Below, in pieces: positions 26,614 to 37,544 of a stretch of DNA of 64,000 nucleotides; within the stretch, counting starts at the first letter, position 1, and each line of letters opens with the position of its first letter. This DNA is from an uncultured candidate division Zixibacteria bacterium (GTDB lineage: Bacteria > Zixibacteria > MSB-5A5 > GN15 > FEB-12): NCBI GenBank assembly GCA_963735035.1, contig CAVTJJ010000006.1, positions 64,001-128,000 of the forward strand, written 5' to 3'. The notes beneath the pieces were generated by a model that was not told the DNA's origin, did no database searches, and saw nothing but the letters and a program-made list of their open reading frames with translations. The position numbers were made by a program, and so were the translations under genes.

Positions 26614-28740
26614 ATGCTCAAGAACCTCAGTATTGGATGGAAACTAGGCCTCGGTCTTGGCCTCGTAGTCCTTTGCATGGTGCTGGTCAACGGCATCACA
26701 TATTTTGGCCTCCAAAGCATCAACAAAAATGTCGTCCTGACCTCTCAAGCGGGTGCCGATCGGGCGTTCGCCATCGAGAAGGAAGTCGATCACCTTAAGT
26801 GGATGGCAGGACTCTGTGAGCTCTGGCTGGATCCGAACGCCACCGGTGTGACTGTGCAAACGGATGATCACAAATGCGGTCTCGGCAAGTGGCTTTTTTC
26901 CGAGGAGACCCGGAAGCTGGCCGAAACCGATCCGGAGCTGGGGACACTCTTGAAGGCGATGGAGGCGCCGCATTTCCGGCTGCACTCGTCGGCTGCGAAG
27001 ATCAATGACATCTACAAGGGCTTCGGAACCTACGCCATGACCCCGCCCGAAGAACGTAAGCAGGCATCATTCGCGGTGTTTTTGAGCGAAACCAAGCCGG
27101 CCGTGACGGAGACCCAGCAACGACTCGGAGAATTGAAGGATTTCTTCTCCAATCGCTCCAAGACCCTGGAGGGCGAGATCGAATCACAAATTGCCACTTC
27201 AGTGACGGTCCTTGTGACGCTTTCGATACTTGCCGCTCTACTCGGCGCGGGAGCGGGTTGGTTCGCTATCCGTAGCGTAACCGGTCCGATCAGTCGCGTG
27301 GTCAAAGCTACCGAGGCCATGAACCGCGAGTTCGCCGGTATGGAGACGGTGATCGAGGCCATCGCCGCAAACGATCTGACCAAAGACGTGGCCGAGTCGC
27401 AAATCCAGCGGATAGGGGTGACTTCCCGCGATGAAATCGGCCGCCTCGTTGAAAGCATCGAAGACACTATCGCGTGCCGGGATCGGATGGGGGTATCTGT
27501 CCGGCGTATGGTCACCAGTCTCAACAACATGGTCCGACAACTTTCCGATAATGCCCGAGAGCTGGTTTCGGCGGCCACCCAGGTAGCGTCGACGTCAGAG
27601 CAAATGTCGAATGGAGCGCATAGGCAGACGGCGCAGGTAACTCAAGTTTCGAGCGCCGTTGAAGAAATGACCGCCACCATCATCGGATCATCGAAGAACG
27701 CCGGCGACGCTTCGGAGACCGCCGGCAGCGCATCTCAGACCGCCATTCAGGGCGGCGAGGTTGTAAGCCAGACGATTCTGGGAATGCAGAAGATCGCCGA
27801 CACGGTCAGGGAATCAGCTGACTCAATCGGCAAACTGGCCAAGTCGGCCGAGCAGATTGGCGCTATTATCAACGTCATCGATGACATCGCTGACCAGACC
27901 AACCTTCTCGCTCTCAACGCCGCCATCGAGGCCGCTCGCGCCGGCGAGCAGGGGCGCGGATTTGCAGTCGTAGCCGACGAAGTGCGCAAATTGGCCGAGC
28001 GCACCGGCAAGGCCACCGGCGAGATCACCGCCATGATCAAAGGAATACAGGTTCAGACCGACGACGCCGTCAAGTCGATGCAGAGCGGTATCCAGCAGGT
28101 TGAGAAAGGCCGCATGCTGGCCGACCAGGCGGGTAATTCCCTGAACGAGATCGTGACCATGTCTCAGAAGGTCATGGACATGATCCAGCAGATAGCTTCG
28201 TCGACCGCCGAGCAGTCCACGGCCGCCGAAGAAATATCGCGCACCATTGAGCTGGTGGCTTCAATCAGCGACGAATCAGCCACCGGAGCCGAGCAGTCCG
28301 CGTCGGCCGCCGAACAATTGAATCGCCAGGCCGAAGGACTTCAACAGATGGTGGCATCGTTCCAGCTTCGGAGCGGTGACTCCGGTATCGTCGAGTTGGC
28401 CAAGCAGGATCACATGCTGTACATAAAGAAGCTGGAGCAAGTTGTACGGCGACCTGAATCAGCCGCCAATTGGAAGACGGTCGACCATCACAACTGCCGC
28501 TTCGGCAAGTGGTACTACTCGGCCGCTACGACCGGGATGCGGGGCGATAACGCCTATCGCTGTCTCGAGGATCCCCACGCCAAGGTACACGAATTTGCCA
28601 ACCGGGCAGTCGAAGCAGTCAAGGCGTCGCGAGATGAGCAAGCAGCTCAACTAAGTGAGCAAGCGCATCAGGCCTCGCATGAAGTGGTGACAAAATTGGC
28701 CGAACTGGCCGAGCACATGAGTGCCAACGTAGGAAAGTAG
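26614..28740 (+). CDS. Methyl-accepting chemotaxis protein with two CZB (zinc-binding) domains
   Basis: Two TM helices, HAMP-like region, [40 protein letters not shown] signalling hairpin. CZB motifs DHLKW...HKCGLGKW...PHFRLH and DHMLY...HNCRFGKW...PHAKVH. Confidence 0.93.
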
Positions 28741-28842: not shown

Positions 28843-30327
28843 TCAATGCTTCGTCTCACCGAACACAATTGCCTGGAATTTCTGAATTACGGCGTCGGGT
28901 GATTTGTAGGCGTCGAACGGGAGACCCGCTTTCTCGCAGGTATGCTGCAAGAACTGATCGCGAGTCCAATTGTATTCAGTGGCTACCTGCGGCAGGAGCA
29001 GACCGCGACGCCCGCCCAGAGAGATCATCAGGCCGTCGCGTCCAACTTCGATTTCGTCGAGCGACTTCACGGTTTGCAGTGGGGTCAGAACCGAAATCTC
29101 GATGTGCAATGAGGCCACTTCCGACGCCGTCACCGGGGGAAACCGGGGATCATCTACTGCGGCACTGATCGCGCACTCGGACACCGTTTTCCAGAGCGTC
29201 TGAATCGCCTGCGTGTAACCGATGCAGCCGCGAAGCTGGCCGTTCTCGGTCAGCGTGACAAACGCCGCACCGAGCGCCTTGAGGGTGTCCGATACGGAAT
29301 ACGTCGGCTGTGGTTTTCCGGTCAAATGATTCTCGATAGAACGCCGGGCGATATCCAAAAGAGTGGTCCGATCGAGCTCGGTCGGGTAAACGTCTTTCGC
29401 GGCTGGGGTTTCGCTTCGTGGAGTCTTAGCCTCTGATGATTTGTAGATCGCCGCAGCCAGATACCCAACGACACTCTTCCTGTCGCCGGTGAGATCACCC
29501 GAATCGCCGTACTTGAGTATCTTCACTTTGTTGGCGCCGCGGGCGACGGCCGCGTGCAGGACTGCCGCTACCGAGCCGCCGCCACAGGCTTCGGTGCCCC
29601 CGGTGCCGAGAAGCCGTTCCAAACGATCAGCATCGAGCGCTTTCACGCACTCGATGCCTGTCGAATCGAGCGGCCACCCTTCCGAGGCGGGGCGATAATG
29701 CTGCCAGTCCGAAGCGGCAATCAGGATGGTATGACCGTCGTTCGGCAGAGCCGCCAGGGCATCTCCGAGGACACGAATAGTCTCGTGACTCGGCTCTCCC
29801 ATGACCACAGGGACGATCGTGAAATTCTTGAGGACGGTCTGCAGATAGGGAAGCTGTACTTCGAGACAGTGCTCGGCCTGATGGGCTTCTTCGAGTACGC
29901 TGAAAGATCGGTTGAAACCTATCAACCGCTGACACAAAGAGTCGTTGCATTTCACGGATCCGAGCGGAGTGCGCCACTCTACTCCTGGGCCGTAAACGGA
30001 AAGGCCTCGAAAGGGGTACTGGTGGGACGGACCACACAGGACAACCGTTGTGGGTTGAGCCTTTTCGAGCAGCCTGTAGCTGTAAGCGGCGACCGGCCCG
30101 GAGTAGACCAGTCCGGCGTGGGGGACGATGAGGGCGATCAGTTCGCCGTCGATCTCATCGGATTTCGGCACTCCGGCGAGATGCTTGTGTATCATCGTGG
30201 CCAACTCGGTGGAGTCGGCCGGGTAGAACCCTCCAGCGACTGCGGGCTGGCGGACGACGGCGGTAGTGCTGTGTGGCGACAGAGCGGCGAGGGAGAAAAT
30301 GCAGGCGAAGATCAGGCTTGGTTTCAT
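28843..30327 (-). CDS. amrB: AmmeMemoRadiSam protein B-A fusion (Memo/AmrB + AMMECR1/AmrA) with an N-terminal signal peptide
   Basis: GGAGG RBS, MKPSLIFACIFSLAALSPHSTTA. Memo motifs RQPAVAGGFYP, PHAGLVYSG, GPSH, EHCLEVQLP, SDWQHY and ACG. AMMECR1 motifs AFVTL, LRGCIG, DPRF and GLLLPQV. Confidence 0.93.
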   Translation of the reverse strand: MKPSLIFACIFSLAALSPHSTTAVVRQPAVAGGFYPADSTELATMIHKHLAGVPKSDEIDGELIALIVPHAGLVYSGPVAAYSYRLLEKAQPTTVVLCGPSHQYPFRGLSVYGPGVEWRTPLGSVKCNDSLCQRLIGFNRSFSVLEEAHQAEHCLEVQLPYLQTVLKNFTIVPVVMGEPSHETIRVLGDALAALPNDGHTILIAASDWQHYRPASEGWPLDSTGIECVKALDADRLERLLGTGGTEACGGGSVAAVLHAAVARGANKVKILKYGDSGDLTGDRKSVVGYLAAAIYKSSEAKTPRSETPAAKDVYPTELDRTTLLDIARRSIENHLTGKPQPTYSVSDTLKALGAAFVTLTENGQLRGCIGYTQAIQTLWKTVSECAISAAVDDPRFPPVTASEVASLHIEISVLTPLQTVKSLDEIEVGRDGLMISLGGRRGLLLPQVATEYNWTRDQFLQHTCEKAGLPFDAYKSPDAVIQKFQAIVFGETKH

Positions 30328-30455
30328 AAAGGACCTCCGACTGTCATTATACATTGCCATCCGATGCCGGTCACGGGGAATTATGAAAGACTGAGATGAG
30401 ACTCTTGGTCCAATTCCCCTGTGGTATCGACCTTCAAATTCAGTATAATATCATT

Positions 30456-31379
30456 ATGAGCACGGTCGTAGTGGTGAAGCTCGCACAGGGGCTGGCCGAA
30501 AGTGGTGTCGATACGACAACGTACCGTCGCATGCTGGAAATCGGCCTGGCCGCGCTCGATTCAGCCTCTGATCTGAGGTCGTCCATTTCAAGCATCCTGC
30601 CGGCAGGGACTGTCGGCTTCAAGACCAACTGTCTCGCCCGGAAATTCAATTCCACCCCCGTGGCTTTGGTCGATGCCCTGACCGGCCTCCTGATCGACCA
30701 CGGTTTCGACGCCAACGATCTGGTCGTCTGGGAGCGCACCAGTCGGGAACTGGCCGATGCCGGCTACACGCTGAACGCCTCAGCCGATGGGGTTCGCTAT
30801 CTCGGCACTGACGCCAACGGGATCGGTTATGCGACCGAGTTCAGCACCCACGGTCCAGTAAGTTCGCTGGTGACCCACATTCTCACTGACATGGTCGAGC
30901 AGAACGTCAACCTGCCCGTGCTCAAGGATCATTCGGTCGCCGGACTTTCGGCCGGGATGAAGAATATGTACGGGGCGATTCACAACCCGAACAAATTCCA
31001 CGCCGATTGTTGCGACCCGTTCTGCGCCCATGTCAACTATCTGGAGCCGATTCGCAGCAAACACCGACTTACGATAATCGATGCCATTCGCGTACAATAT
31101 GACGGCGGTCCCGGTTATATGGCCCAGTACATGACCACGTTCGGTGCTTTAGTGCTTTCTCGCGATCCAGTCGCGGCCGACCGAATTGGGCTGGAGATAC
31201 TCGAACGACTGCGCAAAGATCACGGTCGTCCGACTCTGGCGAAAGCTGGGCGCGAAGTGAAATATCTGAAAACCGCCAAAGCAATCGGTCTCGGTGAATC
31301 GGAGATGGAACAGATCGATTTGAAAGTCATCGTAATAGACGAACTCGGCCAGGTTTCGGCCGGGGAGTTGTTCGGATGA
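30456..31379 (+). CDS. DUF362 domain protein
   Basis: VGFKTN, VWER, NLPVLKDH...AGMKNMYG and DPVAAD motifs; TATAAT 6 nt before the ATG. Confidence 0.85.
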   Translation: MSTVVVVKLAQGLAESGVDTTTYRRMLEIGLAALDSASDLRSSISSILPAGTVGFKTNCLARKFNSTPVALVDALTGLLIDHGFDANDLVVWERTSRELADAGYTLNASADGVRYLGTDANGIGYATEFSTHGPVSSLVTHILTDMVEQNVNLPVLKDHSVAGLSAGMKNMYGAIHNPNKFHADCCDPFCAHVNYLEPIRSKHRLTIIDAIRVQYDGGPGYMAQYMTTFGALVLSRDPVAADRIGLEILERLRKDHGRPTLAKAGREVKYLKTAKAIGLGESEMEQIDLKVIVIDELGQVSAGELFG

Positions 31380-32515
31380 AACGGCGCGATTTTCTTCGTT
31401 GTCTCGGGGCTGGTGCGGCGGTCGCCGGTATTTCAGAGACGCCGTTCTGGCCAAGCGTGCTCGGCGGAGTACAGAACGCTTATGCCTTCGACGTGACCGA
31501 CAAGCTGTCGTCGGTTGAGGCGCGTCATTACAAGAAGCTCGACGGCGGCGGGATCGAGTGCGGCGTTTGTCCGAGACACTGCCGGGTGACCGATCTGGAG
31601 CGCGGCTTCTGTGGCACGCGCGAGAATCGGGGCGACATCTACCACACGCTTGTGTACGGATTGCCCTGCTCGATGAACATCGATCCGATCGAGAAGAAGC
31701 CGTTCTTCCATTTCTATCCGGGGACAAGCGCCCTGTCGCTCGCGACCGCAGGGTGCAACGTCGACTGCAAGTTCTGCCAGAACTGGGAGATTTCACAATC
31801 GCGTCCGGAGCAGACTACCAACTACGAATTCTCGCCTCAGGAAGCGGTCGAAACTTGCCGCTTGCAACGGGTGCCGATCCTCGCCTACACCTACTCCGAG
31901 CCGGTGATATTCTACGAGTACATGTATGATATTGCCGAACTGGGCCACAAGAGTGGGATCAAATCGGTGATGGTCACCGGAGGCTATATCGAAGAAGTCC
32001 CATTGCGTGAACTCATGCCGCATCTGGATGCCATCAAGGTCGATCTCAAGTCGATTCGCGAAGCATACTACAAAGATGTCGTCCGTGGCGAACTCAAGCC
32101 GGTGCTGGACCGCCTGGTTCAAATGCGTAAAGCCGGCATTTGGCTGGAGCTGGTCAATCTGGTCGTACCAACATTGAATGATACCGATCAGGAATTCACC
32201 GAGATGGCTCGCTGGATCAAGACCAATCTGGGAACCGATGTGCCATTGCATTTCTCACGATTTCATCCGCAATATCTGCTCACCGGTCTGCCGATCACTC
32301 CGCAAGCGACATTGGAACGGGCGCACCAGATTTGCCGCTCCGAGGGGCTCGAATATGTTTATCTCGGCAATCTGCCGGGCAATCCTGCTGAATCGACATA
32401 TTGCCCCAAGTGCGGCGCCGTGCTGATAGAGCGTCGCGGATATCAGGTTCGCAAGCTTGGACTGACAGGCAACCAGTGCACAGCCTGTAAGCACGTCATT
32501 CCGGGTCGCTTCTGA
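31376..32515 (+). CDS. amrS: AmmeMemoRadiSam radical SAM enzyme with a twin-arginine signal peptide
   Basis: MKRRDFL...AYA signal, CGVCPRHC, DPIEKKPFFHFYPG, GCNVDCKFCQNWEISQ (CxxxCxxC), YTYSEP, LHFSRFHP, YVYLGN and TYCPKC. Confidence 0.95.
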   Translation: MKRRDFLRCLGAGAAVAGISETPFWPSVLGGVQNAYAFDVTDKLSSVEARHYKKLDGGGIECGVCPRHCRVTDLERGFCGTRENRGDIYHTLVYGLPCSMNIDPIEKKPFFHFYPGTSALSLATAGCNVDCKFCQNWEISQSRPEQTTNYEFSPQEAVETCRLQRVPILAYTYSEPVIFYEYMYDIAELGHKSGIKSVMVTGGYIEEVPLRELMPHLDAIKVDLKSIREAYYKDVVRGELKPVLDRLVQMRKAGIWLELVNLVVPTLNDTDQEFTEMARWIKTNLGTDVPLHFSRFHPQYLLTGLPITPQATLERAHQICRSEGLEYVYLGNLPGNPAESTYCPKCGAVLIERRGYQVRKLGLTGNQCTACKHVIPGRF

Positions 32516-34662
32516 TGAATCGGAACGCATTCCTGCTCGGGTTTCTCGCGACATCGGGTCAGGTCCTGTTACTTCGGGAGATCGTAACAGCTTTCGGGGG
32601 GACAGAACTGTTGATCGGCACGGCTCTGTTCGGTTGGCTGGTGTGGGTAGCGCTGGGTGCGCTTATCGGCGGGCGGACCGGTGCCAGAAACAATCCGCAA
32701 CTTCTACTCGTGGTGGGAGTGCTGATTCTCCCGCTTTCTTTAGTTGGCATCAGGCTACTGCCTGTACTCGTGACCAGCACGGTGGGGGAGATGGTGCCGA
32801 TGACAACCGCCTCGGCTCTGTCGATTCTGGTAGTCGGCCCAGTCGGACTTCTGTCCGGTCTGCTGTTTCCGGCGATTGCGAAAGAGGGGCGTGAAAGCGG
32901 CGAGGCGATTGCATCGGTCTATCTGTTCGAAGGCATCGGGGCGTTTGCTGCCGGACTGGTCACCACGGCTCTCATAAGCTTCTCAATCGGTAATCTAGGA
33001 ACGGCTATCATAGCGGGTGCGTTCGTCGGTTTGGTGACGGCGCTGAAATTCTCGAAACATCGTCTGCTGTCGGCAGCAGTGACAGTTGGTCTCGTCGCAA
33101 TTTTGGCCATGACCGGACTTGGGGCGGCGCTCGACCAACTGTGTGACCAATCGCGATATCCGGGCTATCTGGTCGAGCAATCATTTGATACCCCGTATGG
33201 TCATCAGACAATATTGTTACGCGACAGTTCAACAGTCCTCCTGACTGACAACGCCGTCGAAGCCGTCTTTCCTGACCTGGAACGGGCCGAAAACCTGTTG
33301 GTAGCGCCCTTGGCGTACTGCCCGAAAGCGGCGACGGTCTTGTTCATCGGTCGCGCCGAGTTTGGCCTGGAGCAATTGGCGTTGAAGATCCCGAACCTGC
33401 ATCTCAAATCGATAGATCCCCGCGCCCAAATCTATAGTCCCCTGGAATTGACTCAGGCACGGGTCGCTGTTCGAATCCAAGACGACCCGGTAGCATATTT
33501 GAGTCGTTCGTCGGCCGATACTTTCGATATCATCACCATAGGCCTTGGCCGTTTGGATTCGTACCGCACCTCAAGGTTGATCACACCCGAATTCCTGCAG
33601 AAGGTCAAGAAACATCTGAAACCCGACGGCGTCCTGCTGCTGGCCACATCGTTTGATACCGACCGTTATCTGACCGCGGAAACCGGCGCATCCCTTGCAA
33701 TAGTCACCCGCACTGTCGGCGAAGCATTTCCAAAGATGACCGTCTGGCCGGGCAACACGACGCTTGTCTTTGCCTCAGAACAAAATGATTTGGTCCTGGG
33801 CGTAGATTCTATTCAATCGCGGATTGCCCAAGTGACCTATCGTCCGGAATACGTGAGCGAGTTCTATCTGCCGGAACGTCTGGGCGAGCTGAAGCGAGAG
33901 CGTCTCCAGCGCGCGATAGCTGTGTCATCTTCTGACAATCGTGTTGACCGTCCCGTTCTTGCCACTGCCGAGGCCTGGCATCGCGCCCGGGCGAGCGCTT
34001 ATGATCAGAAATTGGCCGACATTGCATATCGGCACACGCTCTGGTTGTTCCTGATCCCCATATCTCTGATTGTGTTCTTTATTTGGTCTGCGCGGGATCG
34101 GACGCAGGGGCGAATCGGATTACTATTCTATTTCATTGCTGGGGTTGTCTCACTCTCTTTGGAATTGATATCGTTCTACTTGTTTCAGTCCATGGCGGGT
34201 TCGCTCTATACTCACCTGGCGGTATTAATTGGAGTCTTCATGCTCGGCCTGGCGGTGGGGACGTGGTTTGGATCGCGGACAGTCGGGCTCGGAATTGGCT
34301 GGTTGTCGCTATCTACTTTGGCGGCGGCGACCGTAATATTCGCACTGACGTGGAGATTGGTTCCCTCGGAGTTGGCACTCGTATACCATACGATGTTTCT
34401 CCTGGTTGTTGCGCTGGCCACCGGGACTCTCTTTGTAGCGGCCACACGTCACTATTACTCAGGATTCACTAGTCGAAGTCGTGGGACAGGGTATGCGGTG
34501 GAGTTGGCCGGTTCGGCATGTGGGGCGCTGCTTACAACGGGCGTGCTCTTGCCAATAATAGGCGTGAACTTGCTCATATGTGCGTTGGCATTGTTGACAA
34601 TTGCAGCGCTGGCGATACATCTTGGACTGGGCAAGACGAACGAAATGTCCAGGAGCGTGTAA
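32515..34662 (+). CDS. Fused multi-TM (MFS-like)/spermidine synthase-like membrane protein
   Basis: QVLLLRE..FGGTEL first TM block, DTPYGHQ, central Rossmann-like VLFIG/DIIT/EFLQKVKKHLKPDG, DNRVDRP, then a second TM block with FQSMAGSLY and YAVELAGS. Confidence 0.85.
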   Translation: MNRNAFLLGFLATSGQVLLLREIVTAFGGTELLIGTALFGWLVWVALGALIGGRTGARNNPQLLLVVGVLILPLSLVGIRLLPVLVTSTVGEMVPMTTASALSILVVGPVGLLSGLLFPAIAKEGRESGEAIASVYLFEGIGAFAAGLVTTALISFSIGNLGTAIIAGAFVGLVTALKFSKHRLLSAAVTVGLVAILAMTGLGAALDQLCDQSRYPGYLVEQSFDTPYGHQTILLRDSSTVLLTDNAVEAVFPDLERAENLLVAPLAYCPKAATVLFIGRAEFGLEQLALKIPNLHLKSIDPRAQIYSPLELTQARVAVRIQDDPVAYLSRSSADTFDIITIGLGRLDSYRTSRLITPEFLQKVKKHLKPDGVLLLATSFDTDRYLTAETGASLAIVTRTVGEAFPKMTVWPGNTTLVFASEQNDLVLGVDSIQSRIAQVTYRPEYVSEFYLPERLGELKRERLQRAIAVSSSDNRVDRPVLATAEAWHRARASAYDQKLADIAYRHTLWLFLIPISLIVFFIWSARDRTQGRIGLLFYFIAGVVSLSLELISFYLFQSMAGSLYTHLAVLIGVFMLGLAVGTWFGSRTVGLGIGWLSLSTLAAATVIFALTWRLVPSELALVYHTMFLLVVALATGTLFVAATRHYYSGFTSRSRGTGYAVELAGSACGALLTTGVLLPIIGVNLLICALALLTIAALAIHLGLGKTNEMSRSV

Positions 34663-35091
34663 TTGACAAGAGTAGAAGATGAATGCGCTGACGAAGCAGC
34701 GGTCACGAAAGTTATCGAGGCATCAATCGGCTGGGCGCTGACCAAGAACTTCGATCTGCTCTATAGCTCTCTGGCTCAGGATTCCAGACTCTTCATATAT
34801 CATCCCGACAGCGCCGGTACGATCTTAGGTTTCGAGGCCTTCAAGACCTACGCCGAGAGGCTTTTCCGGGGCGATCAATTCAAGGCCACGCGTTTCGAGA
34901 TCAAAGAACTTCGCATCAATATATCGGCCACCGGGGAAACGGCCTGGTACTCCTGTTTGCTGGATGATTTCGGAGAATGGAACGGCCAGCCGGGCGGCTG
35001 GGAAAACTGCCGTTGGACCGGGGTGTTGGAGAAGCGCGACAACAAATGGGTGATCGTCCAGATGCACTTCTCACTTGCGACTGATAAGTAA
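34663..35091 (+). CDS. Nuclear transport factor 2/SnoaL-like protein
   Basis: TAWYS...RWTGVLEKRDNKWVIVQMHFS C-terminal signature. Confidence 0.85.
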   Translation: MTRVEDECADEAAVTKVIEASIGWALTKNFDLLYSSLAQDSRLFIYHPDSAGTILGFEAFKTYAERLFRGDQFKATRFEIKELRINISATGETAWYSCLLDDFGEWNGQPGGWENCRWTGVLEKRDNKWVIVQMHFSLATDK

Positions 35092-35168: not shown

Positions 35169-36056
35169 TTAGATGTCCATCTTGCCGGTGTACTTATCGG
35201 TGTGAGCGGGGCTGACACGCAATCTGTGCGCCGTCGCCCAGGCCTGCATCCCACTTTCAGCGTACGGAGCAATATCTTCAGCATAGATATACTGTCCGGC
35301 GCCCTGCAGGAAGTAGTAGGTCCAGGCGCCGTTCTGTAGGTCCGGAGCATCGTAAGAATACGTGCTGTTGGATGCGGTCGCGATGAAGCTTCCCGCGAGT
35401 CCGTCGCCCAGGAAATTACCGATCTTGCAGGCATCCATCGTCACCAGCACCTTTGTGCAGTTGGCGGAATTGATAATCGGCATGATATAGCCGTGAGGGA
35501 TGTAAAACAGATCGGTGCTGATGATCGACGACCCGTCGGTACCGTACTTGTTGCCATGGCCCGAATAGAAGAACGCGATTTCGTCACCCGGGACGGCGGA
35601 GGCCGCCAGCCACTGCAGGCCCGCCACAATCGCGTCGGCTGTGGCCGCACGGTCCACGTCCATTCTGATCGTAAAGCCCTGGCTTTGGAAATAAGCCCTC
35701 ATATCCTGGGCGTCGTCATCGCAGTATTGCAGGTCATTCGCCGTTCCTTCATAGTCAGATATCCCAACGATGTAGACATACTTGTGAGCCGGGTTGGGAT
35801 TCGGATCGGTGTTGCCACCCGGATCCGGCGGTGGCGGCTTGAGCAACTGGAATCTCTGATATTCCTCGGTCGGCTTCAAGACGTGAGCGTCAATCACCGC
35901 CTGTGGGCGGGTATCGATAAATTCAGGTCTCGCCACCAGCGTCATTGACTGGAAGTCCGGGCCGGGCAGGGTTGAGACGGTAGGAGCGTCTTTGCTACAT
36001 CCCGCGGCCAACATGAGCAGTACAACCGCTGAAAACATTAACAAGCGCAATCGCAT
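35169..36056 (-). CDS. Caspase family (peptidase C14) lipoprotein
   Basis: AAGGAGG RBS, lipobox LAAGC, VGISDY, LQYCDDDA, FFYSGHG (His) and MDAC (Cys). Confidence 0.9.
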   Translation of the reverse strand: MRLRLLMFSAVVLLMLAAGCSKDAPTVSTLPGPDFQSMTLVARPEFIDTRPQAVIDAHVLKPTEEYQRFQLLKPPPPDPGGNTDPNPNPAHKYVYIVGISDYEGTANDLQYCDDDAQDMRAYFQSQGFTIRMDVDRAATADAIVAGLQWLAASAVPGDEIAFFYSGHGNKYGTDGSSIISTDLFYIPHGYIMPIINSANCTKVLVTMDACKIGNFLGDGLAGSFIATASNSTYSYDAPDLQNGAWTYYFLQGAGQYIYAEDIAPYAESGMQAWATAHRLRVSPAHTDKYTGKMDI

Positions 36057-36416: not shown

Positions 36417-37544
36417 ATGCACATCCTCGCCCTTGAACCCTACTACGGCGGCAGCCATCGGGCGTTTTTCGACGGCCTGGTGTCGCACAGCCGCCATAAA
36501 TGGACCGTGCTCGGCCTGCCGGCCCACAAATGGAAATGGCGGATGCGACACAGCGCTGTTACTTTCGCCGGGCAGGTTCAGAAGTCAGTTCACGAACGGT
36601 CGCAGTTGGATCTGGTCTTCTGCTCCGATATGCTCAATCTCGCTGAATTCAGGGGACTGGCGCCCGAGTCGATTGGATCTCTGCCTGCCGTTGCATACTT
36701 CCACGAAAATCAACTAACCTATCCCGTGCAGCATGAAGACGCGCGCGATCTGCATTTTGGCATGATCAATTTTACTACCGCTCTGGCGGCCGACCAGGTC
36801 TGGTTCAACTCGGCATTTCATCGCGATACGTTCTTAGGCGCACTCCGAGAGCTGCTTCATCGGATGCCTGATTACAATCACGTCGAGACAGTCGACGTAA
36901 TCGCGCGGAAATCATATGTACATCCTCAGGGGATAGCCGAACCGACCGCCCTCAAGACTCGCCCGAGCGGGCCGCCGCGCATTCTCTGGGTGGCGCGCTG
37001 GGAGCACGACAAGAACCCGGAGCTATTCTTTGAAGCGATGTACCGCCTTCAAGACGAAGAGTGTGACTTTCGTTTGAGTGCAATTGGCGAACAATTCAGT
37101 GACACACCGTCGATATTTGCAGAAGCCCGTACCCGCCTGCAGGAGCGGATCGACCGCTGGGGTTTTCAATCAACTCGCGCCGAGTATGAACTATCGCTGG
37201 CTGAGGCTGACATAGTAGTGTCCACCGCCGATCATGAGTTCTTTGGAGTGAGCGTGGTCGAAGCGGTTGCGGCGGGGGCTTTCCCCCTGTTGCCGAAGCG
37301 ACTGGCCTACCCGGAGATATTCTCAACTGAGGGGAGAGCTGGCGACGAAGATTTCTTCTACGACGGTTCCGTCGACAGCTTGTTGGGTCGATTACGAACG
37401 CTGCTTACTAAGACGGCCACCGGGAATCTGTGGGAGAAGCGTCCTGATCGGCTGAATAACATAGTCGAGAAATACTATTGGAAGAATCTCGCGCCTCAAT
37501 TGGATAAGGCGCTCGACGATCTGGTACGATCCAAACGACAGTGA
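36417..37544 (+). CDS. DUF3524 GT-B glycosyltransferase (GTDC1/QTMAN-like)
   Basis: LEPYYGGSH, WKWRMRH, YFHENQLTYP, FNSAFH, RWEHDKNP and HEFFGVSVVEA. Confidence 0.9.
   Translation: MHILALEPYYGGSHRAFFDGLVSHSRHKWTVLGLPAHKWKWRMRHSAVTFAGQVQKSVHERSQLDLVFCSDMLNLAEFRGLAPESIGSLPAVAYFHENQLTYPVQHEDARDLHFGMINFTTALAADQVWFNSAFHRDTFLGALRELLHRMPDYNHVETVDVIARKSYVHPQGIAEPTALKTRPSGPPRILWVARWEHDKNPELFFEAMYRLQDEECDFRLSAIGEQFSDTPSIFAEARTRLQERIDRWGFQSTRAEYELSLAEADIVVSTADHEFFGVSVVEAVAAGAFPLLPKRLAYPEIFSTEGRAGDEDFFYDGSVDSLLGRLRTLLTKTATGNLWEKRPDRLNNIVEKYYWKNLAPQLDKALDDLVRSKRQ

Follow-up and report, generated by a model that had tools for sequence, protein, structure and literature searches.

A leader-bearing second AmmeMemoRadiSam system, probably exported, in a candidate division Zixibacteria genome

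Introduction

The AmmeMemoRadiSam system joins AMMECR1 (AmrA, TIGR04335), Memo (AmrB, TIGR04336) and a radical S-adenosylmethionine (SAM) enzyme (AmrS, TIGR04337), and cytoplasmic components without signal peptides are implicit in the family descriptions. Radical SAM enzymes depend on SAM and on low-potential electrons, which are both cytoplasmic; because of this need, an oxygen-sensitive cluster and the requirement for a strong reductant, they are taken to be enzymes of the cytoplasm. The twin-arginine translocation (Tat) pathway exports folded, cofactor-loaded proteins, and hydrogenase small and large subunits and DmsAB are examples of pairs in which one partner hitchhikes on the other. Here we describe a gene cluster in a 64,000-nucleotide stretch (the window; positions 64,001 to 128,000 of contig CAVTJJ010000006.1, assembly GCA_963735035.1) from an uncultured candidate division Zixibacteria bacterium, in which an AmrS with a Tat leader is encoded beside a Memo-AMMECR1 fusion with a leader of the general secretory (Sec) type.

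Memo-AMMECR1 systems were reportedly described by Burroughs et al. 2019 (J Biol Chem; cited in PMC7159879), a paper outside the coverage of our literature search, which found no report of a radical SAM enzyme whose Tat leader is functional and none of an exported AmmeMemoRadiSam system. AMMECR1 is still on a list of uncharacterised conserved proteins in an excerpt of PMC6393860.

Composition of the cluster

The core of the cluster spans positions 28843-34662 of the window, with the amrB-amrA fusion divergent to the genes for DUF362, AmrS and a membrane protein. The fusion (28843-30360, minus strand; a 505-aa open reading frame, ORF) lies above the NCBIfam cut-offs in both halves. Its Memo domain (residues 38-303; 29452-30249, minus strand) matches PF01875 at E 1.4e-60 and TIGR04336 at 246.3 bits against a cut-off of 26, and its AMMECR1 domain (residues 336-500; 28861-29355, minus strand) matches PF01871 at E 1.4e-53 and TIGR04335 at 182.1 bits against 99. 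On the plus strand, a DUF362 gene of 307 codons (DUF362a; 30456-31379; PF04015, 66 bits) precedes amrS (31376-32515, plus strand; 379 aa), whose product scores 371.5 bits with TIGR04337 against a cut-off of 220, the model beginning only at residue 50. The radical SAM motif CxxxCxxC (C127, C131 and C134; 31754-31777, plus strand) is invariant in 51 aligned homologues. Like canonical AmmeMemoRadiSam systems, the locus thus has all three families above cut-off and keeps the CxxxCxxC as well as the N- and C-terminal Cys motifs. The amrS gene is followed by one for a 715-aa, 14-helix membrane protein (32515-34662, plus strand), a major facilitator superfamily (MFS) transporter with an inserted domain resembling the spermidine synthase SpeE.

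The junctions are tight. DUF362 and amrS share an ATGA overlap at 31376-31379, an arrangement of translational coupling, amrS and the membrane-protein gene overlap in TGATG (32513-32517), and a TAA-TTG junction (34660-34665) joins the latter to a downstream gene considered at the end. These ORFs and junctions all lie where a preliminary description of this DNA had placed them. The cluster is a second AmmeMemoRadiSam copy, with an export or membrane signal on each part.

Leaders and start codons

In contrast to the signal-less form expected of the family, AmrS and AmrB-A of the window both have leaders, which we called by rule from motif, hydropathy and conservation. AmrS opens with MKRRDFLRCLGAGAAVAGISETPFWPSVLGGVQNAYA|FDV. 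The putative Tat leader (residues 1-37; 31376-31486, plus strand) comprises KRRDFLR, an h-region, CLGAGAAVAGI, with a mean hydropathy of 1.91, and a c-region that ends in the cleavage site AYA|F; R3 and R4 are invariant in the 51 alignment rows. Among the 120 best database matches (68-85% identical, nearly all 378-383 aa), RRxF/L is kept in 117, the other three being shorter gene calls that open inside the leader, and AxA followed by F, L or Y stands at the expected site in 111. Identity to the window protein drops from 0.69 over the n-region to 0.38 over the h-region, is 0.47 over the c-region and returns to 0.69 for the mature part, a profile typical of signal peptides. These features bear out the earlier proposal of a Tat signal ahead of an intact CxxxCxxC core. 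The h-region contains a CxxC in 96 of the 120 homologues (consensus RRxFLRCxGCGA), of which the window leader (31400-31411) has the first Cys only.

The ATG of amrS lies across the stop codon of DUF362 and is preceded by GGGGAG, and no Shine-Dalgarno sequence lies ahead of the alternative start, a GTG at Val40. In the amrB-amrA ORF, GGAGG stands at 30338-30334, 6 nt ahead of the Met12 ATG (30327), and a TATAAT -10 box occupies 30351-30346, inside codons 1-5. Because of this placement the start is probably Met12 and the product MKPSLIFACIFSLAALSPHSTTA|VVRQPAVAG, with a Sec-type leader (30259-30327, minus strand; h-region mean hydropathy 2.07). The proposal of a Sec-type leader right before the RQPAVAG motif holds for this probable product. 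From Met1 the protein would instead carry a Tat-like SRRSFMK, and export would be predicted from either start. For DUF362a, whose ORF opens at 30396, the probable start is Met21 (30456, MSTVVVVK), which matches the starts of its orthologues and leaves no leader. The genome encodes TatC (PF00902, 245.5 bits; C4:1482198-1482818).

A signal-less set in the same genome

A profile search of the genome found a further AmrS (614.6 bits; C4:511654-512859) and a further AmrB-A fusion (C3:982458-983942). Both open directly with the catalytic domain, and this canonical, signal-less set is an internal control for the exported-type copy of the window. The two sets share the fused Memo-AMMECR1 arrangement. 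They differ in that the window system carries leaders and its AmrS belongs to a clade of its own, and in that the canonical set has no DUF362, no MFS-SpeE protein and no NapH/G polyferredoxin with a second DUF362 nearby. The preliminary description had given modification of nucleic-acid bases as a proposed function of the trio and had reasoned that a periplasmic pathway argues against an RNA substrate. Because the genome retains the canonical set, that argument applies to the exported-type paralogue and does not extend to the system at large.

Distribution and covariation

We scanned for related loci, taking one genome per species, and obtained 80, many of which stop at contig edges. The labels of these metagenome-assembled genomes include Zixibacteria, Acidobacteriota/Terriglobia/Bryobacterales, Aminicenantes, Eisenbacteria, Gemmatimonadales, Marinimicrobia, Desulfobacterota and others. 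In BLASTP of six-frame ORFs, 78 of the loci yielded AmrS, 66 yielded DUF362, 53 the membrane protein and 29 AmrB-A. The gene order DUF362-AmrS-membrane protein is the rule, and each of the 29 AmrB-A fusions found beside an exported-type AmrS has a hydrophobic or lipobox leader, several being lipoboxes.

Of 121 genomes of the phylum, 105 have TIGR04337 matches and 114 have TIGR04336 matches, mostly with two copies of each. We took 23 phylum genomes, picked by copy-number pattern and family spread and not by signals, and evaluated every listed AmrS or AmrB place in them (70 regions). Every one of the 19 genomes that encode a Tat-AmrS also encodes an AmrB-A with a leader or lipobox, which is its neighbour in 13 of them and unlinked in the other 6, and the four genomes whose AmrS are all signal-less have only signal-less AmrB-A. 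This covariation of leaders was one of the points on which the preliminary description had staked its proposal, and it is borne out. As for the partners, DUF362 lies directly upstream of Tat-AmrS in 66/80 loci and 18/19 phylum genomes, and the membrane protein lies downstream of it or next to it in 53/80 and 18/19. The four genomes lacking an exported-type AmrS are 99-100% complete and contain neither a DUF362a-type gene nor a full-length MFS-SpeE orthologue; their SpeE genes are ordinary or N-terminally anchored and reach 82-102 bits on the family profile, against 729 for the window gene. Other SpeE-type genes of the window genome score similarly low (~90-105 bits).

In 16 of the 19 carriers the signal-less AmrS is accompanied by a signal-less AmrB(A). 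In the remaining three (G062, G071 and G100; L143, L144, L147, L150 and L151) no signal-less AmrB was found at E <= 1e-20, despite one or two signal-less AmrS, and the sole AmrB-A is the lipoprotein form.

We then placed the leaders on a tree of 123 AmrS catalytic domains (FastTree, leaders removed, midpoint root only), with four leader labels adjusted by eye ahead of counting. All leader-bearing AmrS fall in one clade (97/123 rows, local support 96), which holds 92 Tat copies, four whose N-terminus is hydrophobic but lacks a clean RR pair, and one leaderless copy (L068). The 26 other signal-less AmrS all fall outside it. The leader label changes four times on the tree, against a mean of 28.6 when shuffled. 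The module thus appears, from these sequence comparisons, to be co-inherited faithfully, alongside the ordinary cytoplasmic set and independently of it. The copies without a clean RR pair are L078:1840-3090, L082:9872-10999, L086:9872-10999 and L139:5548-6999, three of them from Eisenbacteria, and their AmrB-A neighbours have lipoprotein leaders.

Several variants of the arrangement were seen. In a genome of the same genus (G014, contig C5; L092 and L094) a leader-bearing amrB-amrA lies ~16 kb from DUF362-amrS-MFS/SpeE, so the divergent linkage of amrB-amrA in the window is recent or labile. Two Gemmatimonadales loci (L063:4658-5518 and L071:6093-6950) encode, immediately before the Tat-DUF362 gene, an additional short AmrB of ~285 aa that carries no signal, and both also have a leader-bearing AmrB-A fusion downstream of AmrS. 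A DUF6599-family protein of ~300 aa recurs by the exported-type system in 33/80 loci and may be a further component. In Aminicenantes loci it is encoded on the strand opposite to DUF362, immediately before that gene (e.g. L016:7940-8854, minus strand), and the L007 copy opens with a hydrophobic leader.

The DUF362 partner

The DUF362 protein encoded before AmrS comes with a Tat leader of its own in the Acidobacteriota, Eisenbacteria and Gemmatimonadales loci; the leader is absent in the Aminicenantes loci and in the lineage of the window. This distribution fits a protein that works outside and, in the window lineage, rides out with AmrS. We modelled AmrS residues 40-379 (51-row alignment) with DUF362a (56 rows). 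The predicted complex has an interaction score from aligned errors (ipSAE) of 0.77 (0.74, 0.77 and 0.77 in the individual runs), the best of three controls scoring 0.00. Contact agreement was at least 91% and the predicted local distance difference test (pLDDT) value of the partner at least 92. In calibration, 116 of 157 solved complexes but also 2 of 215 mismatches came up to this ipSAE mark, a guide that is rough for custom alignments. The models thus support binding of DUF362a by AmrS as a heterodimer.

On the DUF362 side, the predicted interface consists of an invariant N177-P-N-K-x-H182 loop and G218-P219. On the AmrS side it consists of residues 57-59 and 70-80, near the N-terminal Cys motif (C62/C65/C69/C79), and of residues 130 and 141-146, the latter just after C127/C131/C134. 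The modelled contacts suggest that DUF362 is a catalytic partner or client of AmrS rather than mere cargo. Because the NPNKxH loop docks at the active site in the model, DUF362 may be a protein substrate or a cofactor carrier activated by AmrS.

Such docking recalls the glycyl-radical activases PflA and NrdG, the nearest characterised radical SAM relatives of AmrS by profile, which act on a protein loop. The cluster differs in that it encodes no glycyl-radical enzyme. As a candidate activase of this type AmrS was rejected, since it reaches 49.1 bits with TIGR02493 against a cut-off of 231.75 and 43.3 bits with TIGR02495 against 131.15.

The AlphaFold2 model of DUF362a has a pLDDT of 96.5, and all 12 of its PDB matches at E <= 0.001 are chains of the LarA family of nickel-pincer nucleotide racemases (DUF2088). 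The best, 7s91, has E 5e-6, a query-normalised template modelling score (TMq) of 0.52 and 13% identity. The resemblance is distant, with identities of 9-13%, TMq ~0.5 and a length of 307 aa against ~400-430. DUF362 and LarA (DUF2088) are placed in the same Pfam clan, CL0471, in an excerpt of PMC11770544.

The arrangement resembles Tat hitchhiking pairs in that AmrS has a leader, the adjacent and coupled DUF362a has none, and a heterodimer is predicted; an excerpt of PMC10924467 sets out the principle of Tat export as a heterodimer with a signal-less partner. It differs in that the cargo would be a radical SAM enzyme, a class for which our literature search gave no example among Tat substrates, and in that both partners have leaders in other phyla. 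The preliminary description had left it between co-export of the signal-less DUF362 and a role inside the cell. The Tat leaders elsewhere and the predicted complex lend support to co-export.

The membrane protein

The AlphaFold2 model of the membrane protein (pLDDT 91.9, predicted template modelling score 0.93) has seven helices, a soluble domain at ~219-495 and seven further helices. The layout is an MFS N-half of six helices, an extra helix, the SpeE-like domain (residues 219-495; 33169-33999, plus strand), another extra helix and an MFS C-half of six. Foldseek of the whole model against the PDB gave SpeE matches only, the best including the N-terminal beta-hairpin domain of the SpeE fold (1uir_B, E 2.4e-10, target-normalised template modelling score 0.71), and the MFS fold came from a wider structure search. 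In that search the helical part matched VMAT2 (9kqa_A, Z 29.2, root-mean-square deviation 3.5, 327 aligned), VAChT (Z 27.2), SotB (26.0), OCTN2, FLVCR2 and many other MFS chains, the matches spanning model residues 1-714. The SpeE-like domain matched 1uir_A (Z 26.2, root-mean-square deviation 3.5, 286 aligned). The preliminary description had named the product a membrane SAM-fold protein. The SpeE-like fold is there, but the whole protein is an MFS transporter into which this domain, predicted to face the periplasm, is inserted.

That topology follows from charge bias. Loops on the N-terminal side contain 17 Lys and Arg residues against one on the side of the SpeE-like domain, and the N-terminal side is the richer in 57/57 family members (median 18 vs 2). 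Because of this bias and the usual cytoplasmic termini of MFS proteins, we place the SpeE-like domain in the periplasm, an outward orientation supported by the model.

Canonical SpeE proteins have a glycine-rich loop, GGGDG, for decarboxylated SAM (dcSAM) and an acidic D(S/T)xDP motif. In the window these motifs have diverged (IGRAEFG, SIDPR, DDP and IGLGRL), and neither the glycine loop nor the acidic motif of an aminopropyltransferase is recognisable, whereas most other lineages retain IGGGxxG, VELDP, DGRxFL and NLPDP. The nearest described proteins are the fused MFS/spermidine synthases of NF037959, to which the window protein is linked by a score of 50.5 bits against a cut-off of 40 and by the presence of both folds on a confident model. 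It departs from these, and from the membrane-anchored polyamine aminopropyltransferases of PRK03612, in that its SpeE-like domain sits on the trans side between the two MFS halves, in a 7+7 helix arrangement, and in that the window lineage has replaced the glycine loop and acidic motif. Fold, topology and tight synteny suggest that the MFS-SpeE protein may supply the exported enzyme with SAM or a related cation.

A candidate electron route

In the closest relatives (L007, L009 and several genomes of the phylum), genes for a 560-aa membrane polyferredoxin and a Tat-DUF362 paralogue (DUF362b) extend the cluster. The same pair is present in the window genome but unlinked, at C4:1093101-1095742, with identities to its relatives of 68-69% for the polyferredoxin and 62-68% for DUF362b. 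The pair matches NapG (104 bits), NapH (76/73 bits) and PF04015 (165 bits). A NapH/NapG-type polyferredoxin with DUF362b is a plausible conduit for low-potential electrons.

Divergent beside DUF362b stand larE, larB and larC, each of which scores above cut-off, and after them a gene for a DUF6599 lipoprotein; the whole occupies C4:1093101-1099319 (L161:4101-10319), and a LarA-type gene is also present elsewhere in the genome. This proximity, together with the LarA-like fold of DUF362, raised the idea of a nickel-pincer cofactor. None of the 150 fetched loci contains lar genes. Across the phylum larB occurs in 66 of 121 genomes and does not track the system: among the 19 confirmed carriers it was found in 11 and not found in 8. 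Given these eight carriers and the lack of lar synteny, we rejected the cofactor as a general requirement.

Proposed mechanism and alternatives

On balance we judge it likely, with real room for doubt, that the system is truly extracytoplasmic and constitutes an exported paralogue of AmmeMemoRadiSam. AmrS would be loaded with Fe-S clusters, and possibly with SAM, while still in the cytoplasm, and would pair with the LarA-like DUF362a. The pair would cross the membrane via Tat on the AmrS leader, with DUF362a hitchhiking, and the Memo-AMMECR1 fusion would cross via Sec. All three would work on the outer side of the inner membrane, next to the MFS protein with its outward SpeE-like domain. This transporter would be the leading candidate for delivery of SAM, or of a cationic adenosyl compound akin to it, and the polyferredoxin and Tat-DUF362b encoded elsewhere would be the candidate low-potential electron route. 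The substrate would be an envelope or periplasmic molecule. A more ambitious version, which we offer tentatively and would not wager on, is a self-sufficient workstation at the outer face, in which the MFS exports SAM or dcSAM to its own adenosyl-binding domain, the polyferredoxin and DUF362b supply electrons, and AmrS-DUF362 and Memo-AMMECR1 carry out radical chemistry on an envelope molecule.

Of the periplasmic radical SAM pathway put forward in the preliminary description, the computed elements stand, with leaders that are conserved and covary and with TatC present; export itself and SAM chemistry in the periplasm we only infer.

A number of points weigh against extracytoplasmic function. 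We know of no periplasmic SAM pool and no SAM exporter. The role given to MFS-SpeE is a guess from fold and position, and since the canonical glycine loop is lost, the SpeE-like domain of the window may not bind an adenosyl ligand. The score of the predicted complex is model confidence on custom alignments and not a measurement. The leaders rest on rule-based judgement, four N-termini in the covariation set (G014 L094, G017 L124, G084 L109 and G020 L158) needed a judgement of the start codon, and four members of the exported-type clade lack a clean RR pair and L068 lacks a leader. The CxxC of the h-region, as it appears in the homologues, is nothing that an ordinary signal peptide needs. Finally, the sampled genomes are kin, picked by copy-number pattern, and the covariation, which can be traced to a single ancient origin and later co-inheritance, does not amount to many independent events.

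One alternative, a sub-variant of the exported reading, dispenses with a periplasmic supply of SAM. AmrS would leave the cytoplasm with SAM bound and use it once or regenerate it, as lysine 2,3-aminomutase-type enzymes regenerate SAM as a cofactor, and MFS-SpeE would handle, say, a polyamine or the substrate. Tat transport of folded, cofactor-loaded proteins would allow this. The diverged glycine loop makes SAM binding by the SpeE-like domain of the window doubtful, and the best MFS matches are amine and organic-cation carriers (VMAT2, VAChT, OCTN2 and FLVCR2), to which polyamines are suited as well as SAM. We nevertheless think it unlikely, as the outward domain has near-canonical SpeE motifs (IGGGxxG, VELDP and DGRxFL) in most other lineages, the tight synteny of AmrS and MFS/SpeE (TGATG; 53/80 and 18/19) argues for a direct functional tie, and AmrS is nearest, by weak NCBIfam matches, to activase-type enzymes that consume SAM.

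The main alternative keeps AmrS on the cytoplasmic side, its leader being an uncleaved membrane tether or, as in NarG, a chaperone-binding remnant, and has it mature AmrB-A, DUF362 or another client before export. SAM and low-potential electrons would then be at hand. The leader CxxC in 96/120 homologues hints at a role other than targeting, and three Eisenbacteria AmrS and one other have a plain hydrophobic N-terminus with no RR. There is a precedent in HXS defence, where, according to an excerpt of PMC13128918, radical SAM proteins are required for maturing an effector that ends in the periplasm. Yet the AmrS leader has all three parts of a Tat signal, with AxA[FLY] in 111/120, and its h-region varies as signal peptides do. 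DUF362, the predicted partner, has a full Tat leader in several phyla, and the predicted outward SpeE-like domain and the lipoprotein forms of AmrB-A put partners outside. A pure cytoplasmic maturase would also need no leader that covaries with those of its partners. We regard this explanation as rather improbable.

That the leaders are mis-called starts or chance and both proteins ordinary cytoplasmic components is practically excluded and was rejected: the ORFs were longest frames and Val40 of AmrS (GTG) and several Met codons of AmrB-A are formally possible starts, but the amrS ATG overlaps the DUF362 stop (ATGA) behind GGGGAG while Val40 lacks a Shine-Dalgarno sequence, leader length and motif are conserved in 117/120 homologues and across phyla, paralogues in the same genome have no leader, and the AmrB-A leader lies downstream, not upstream, of the best ribosome-binding site.

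If the exported-paralogue reading is right, a widespread radical SAM clade built for export would overturn the assumption that such enzymes work only in the cytoplasm, a route for SAM and electrons across the membrane would be implied, and there would be a first real handle on the function of the Memo/AMMECR1/radical SAM trio. Because the exported-type and cytoplasmic sets coexist in one genome, they can be compared directly, and experiments have concrete objects in the predicted AmrS-DUF362 pair and in the MFS-SpeE protein. New here are the control within the genome, the covariation count over 23 genomes and the single-clade result, together with the predicted AmrS-DUF362 interface, the architecture of an MFS with a predicted outward SpeE-like domain and the negative test of the nickel-pincer idea.

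Neighbouring genes

Directly after the cluster lies a SnoaL_3/NTF2-like gene (34663-35091, plus strand; PF13474), which the preliminary description had listed with the overlapping or abutting genes. It is probably not a member and we rejected it as one: no homologue was found in the 80 related loci or the 70 phylum regions, and it is missing from the same-genus locus. A caspase-domain gene (Peptidase_C14; 35169-36056, minus strand), convergent with the cluster, has a lipoprotein-like leader, MLAAGCSKD, and was rejected on the same ground (0/80 loci, none in the 70 regions). On the other side, a methyl-accepting chemotaxis gene (26614-28740, plus strand) with HAMP and two CZB (zinc-binding) matches is convergent with amrB-amrA. 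It too was recovered in 0/80 loci, but two of the 70 regions have chemoreceptor matches: in L094 a fragment with 69% identity lies next to the AmrB-A of the same-genus genome, and L113 has a match at 34%. Further downstream, a glycosyltransferase gene (36417-37544, plus strand) combines QTMAN_N (E 4.4e-65), the N-terminal domain of tRNA-queuosine alpha-mannosyltransferase and unusual for a bacterium, with a GT1 domain.

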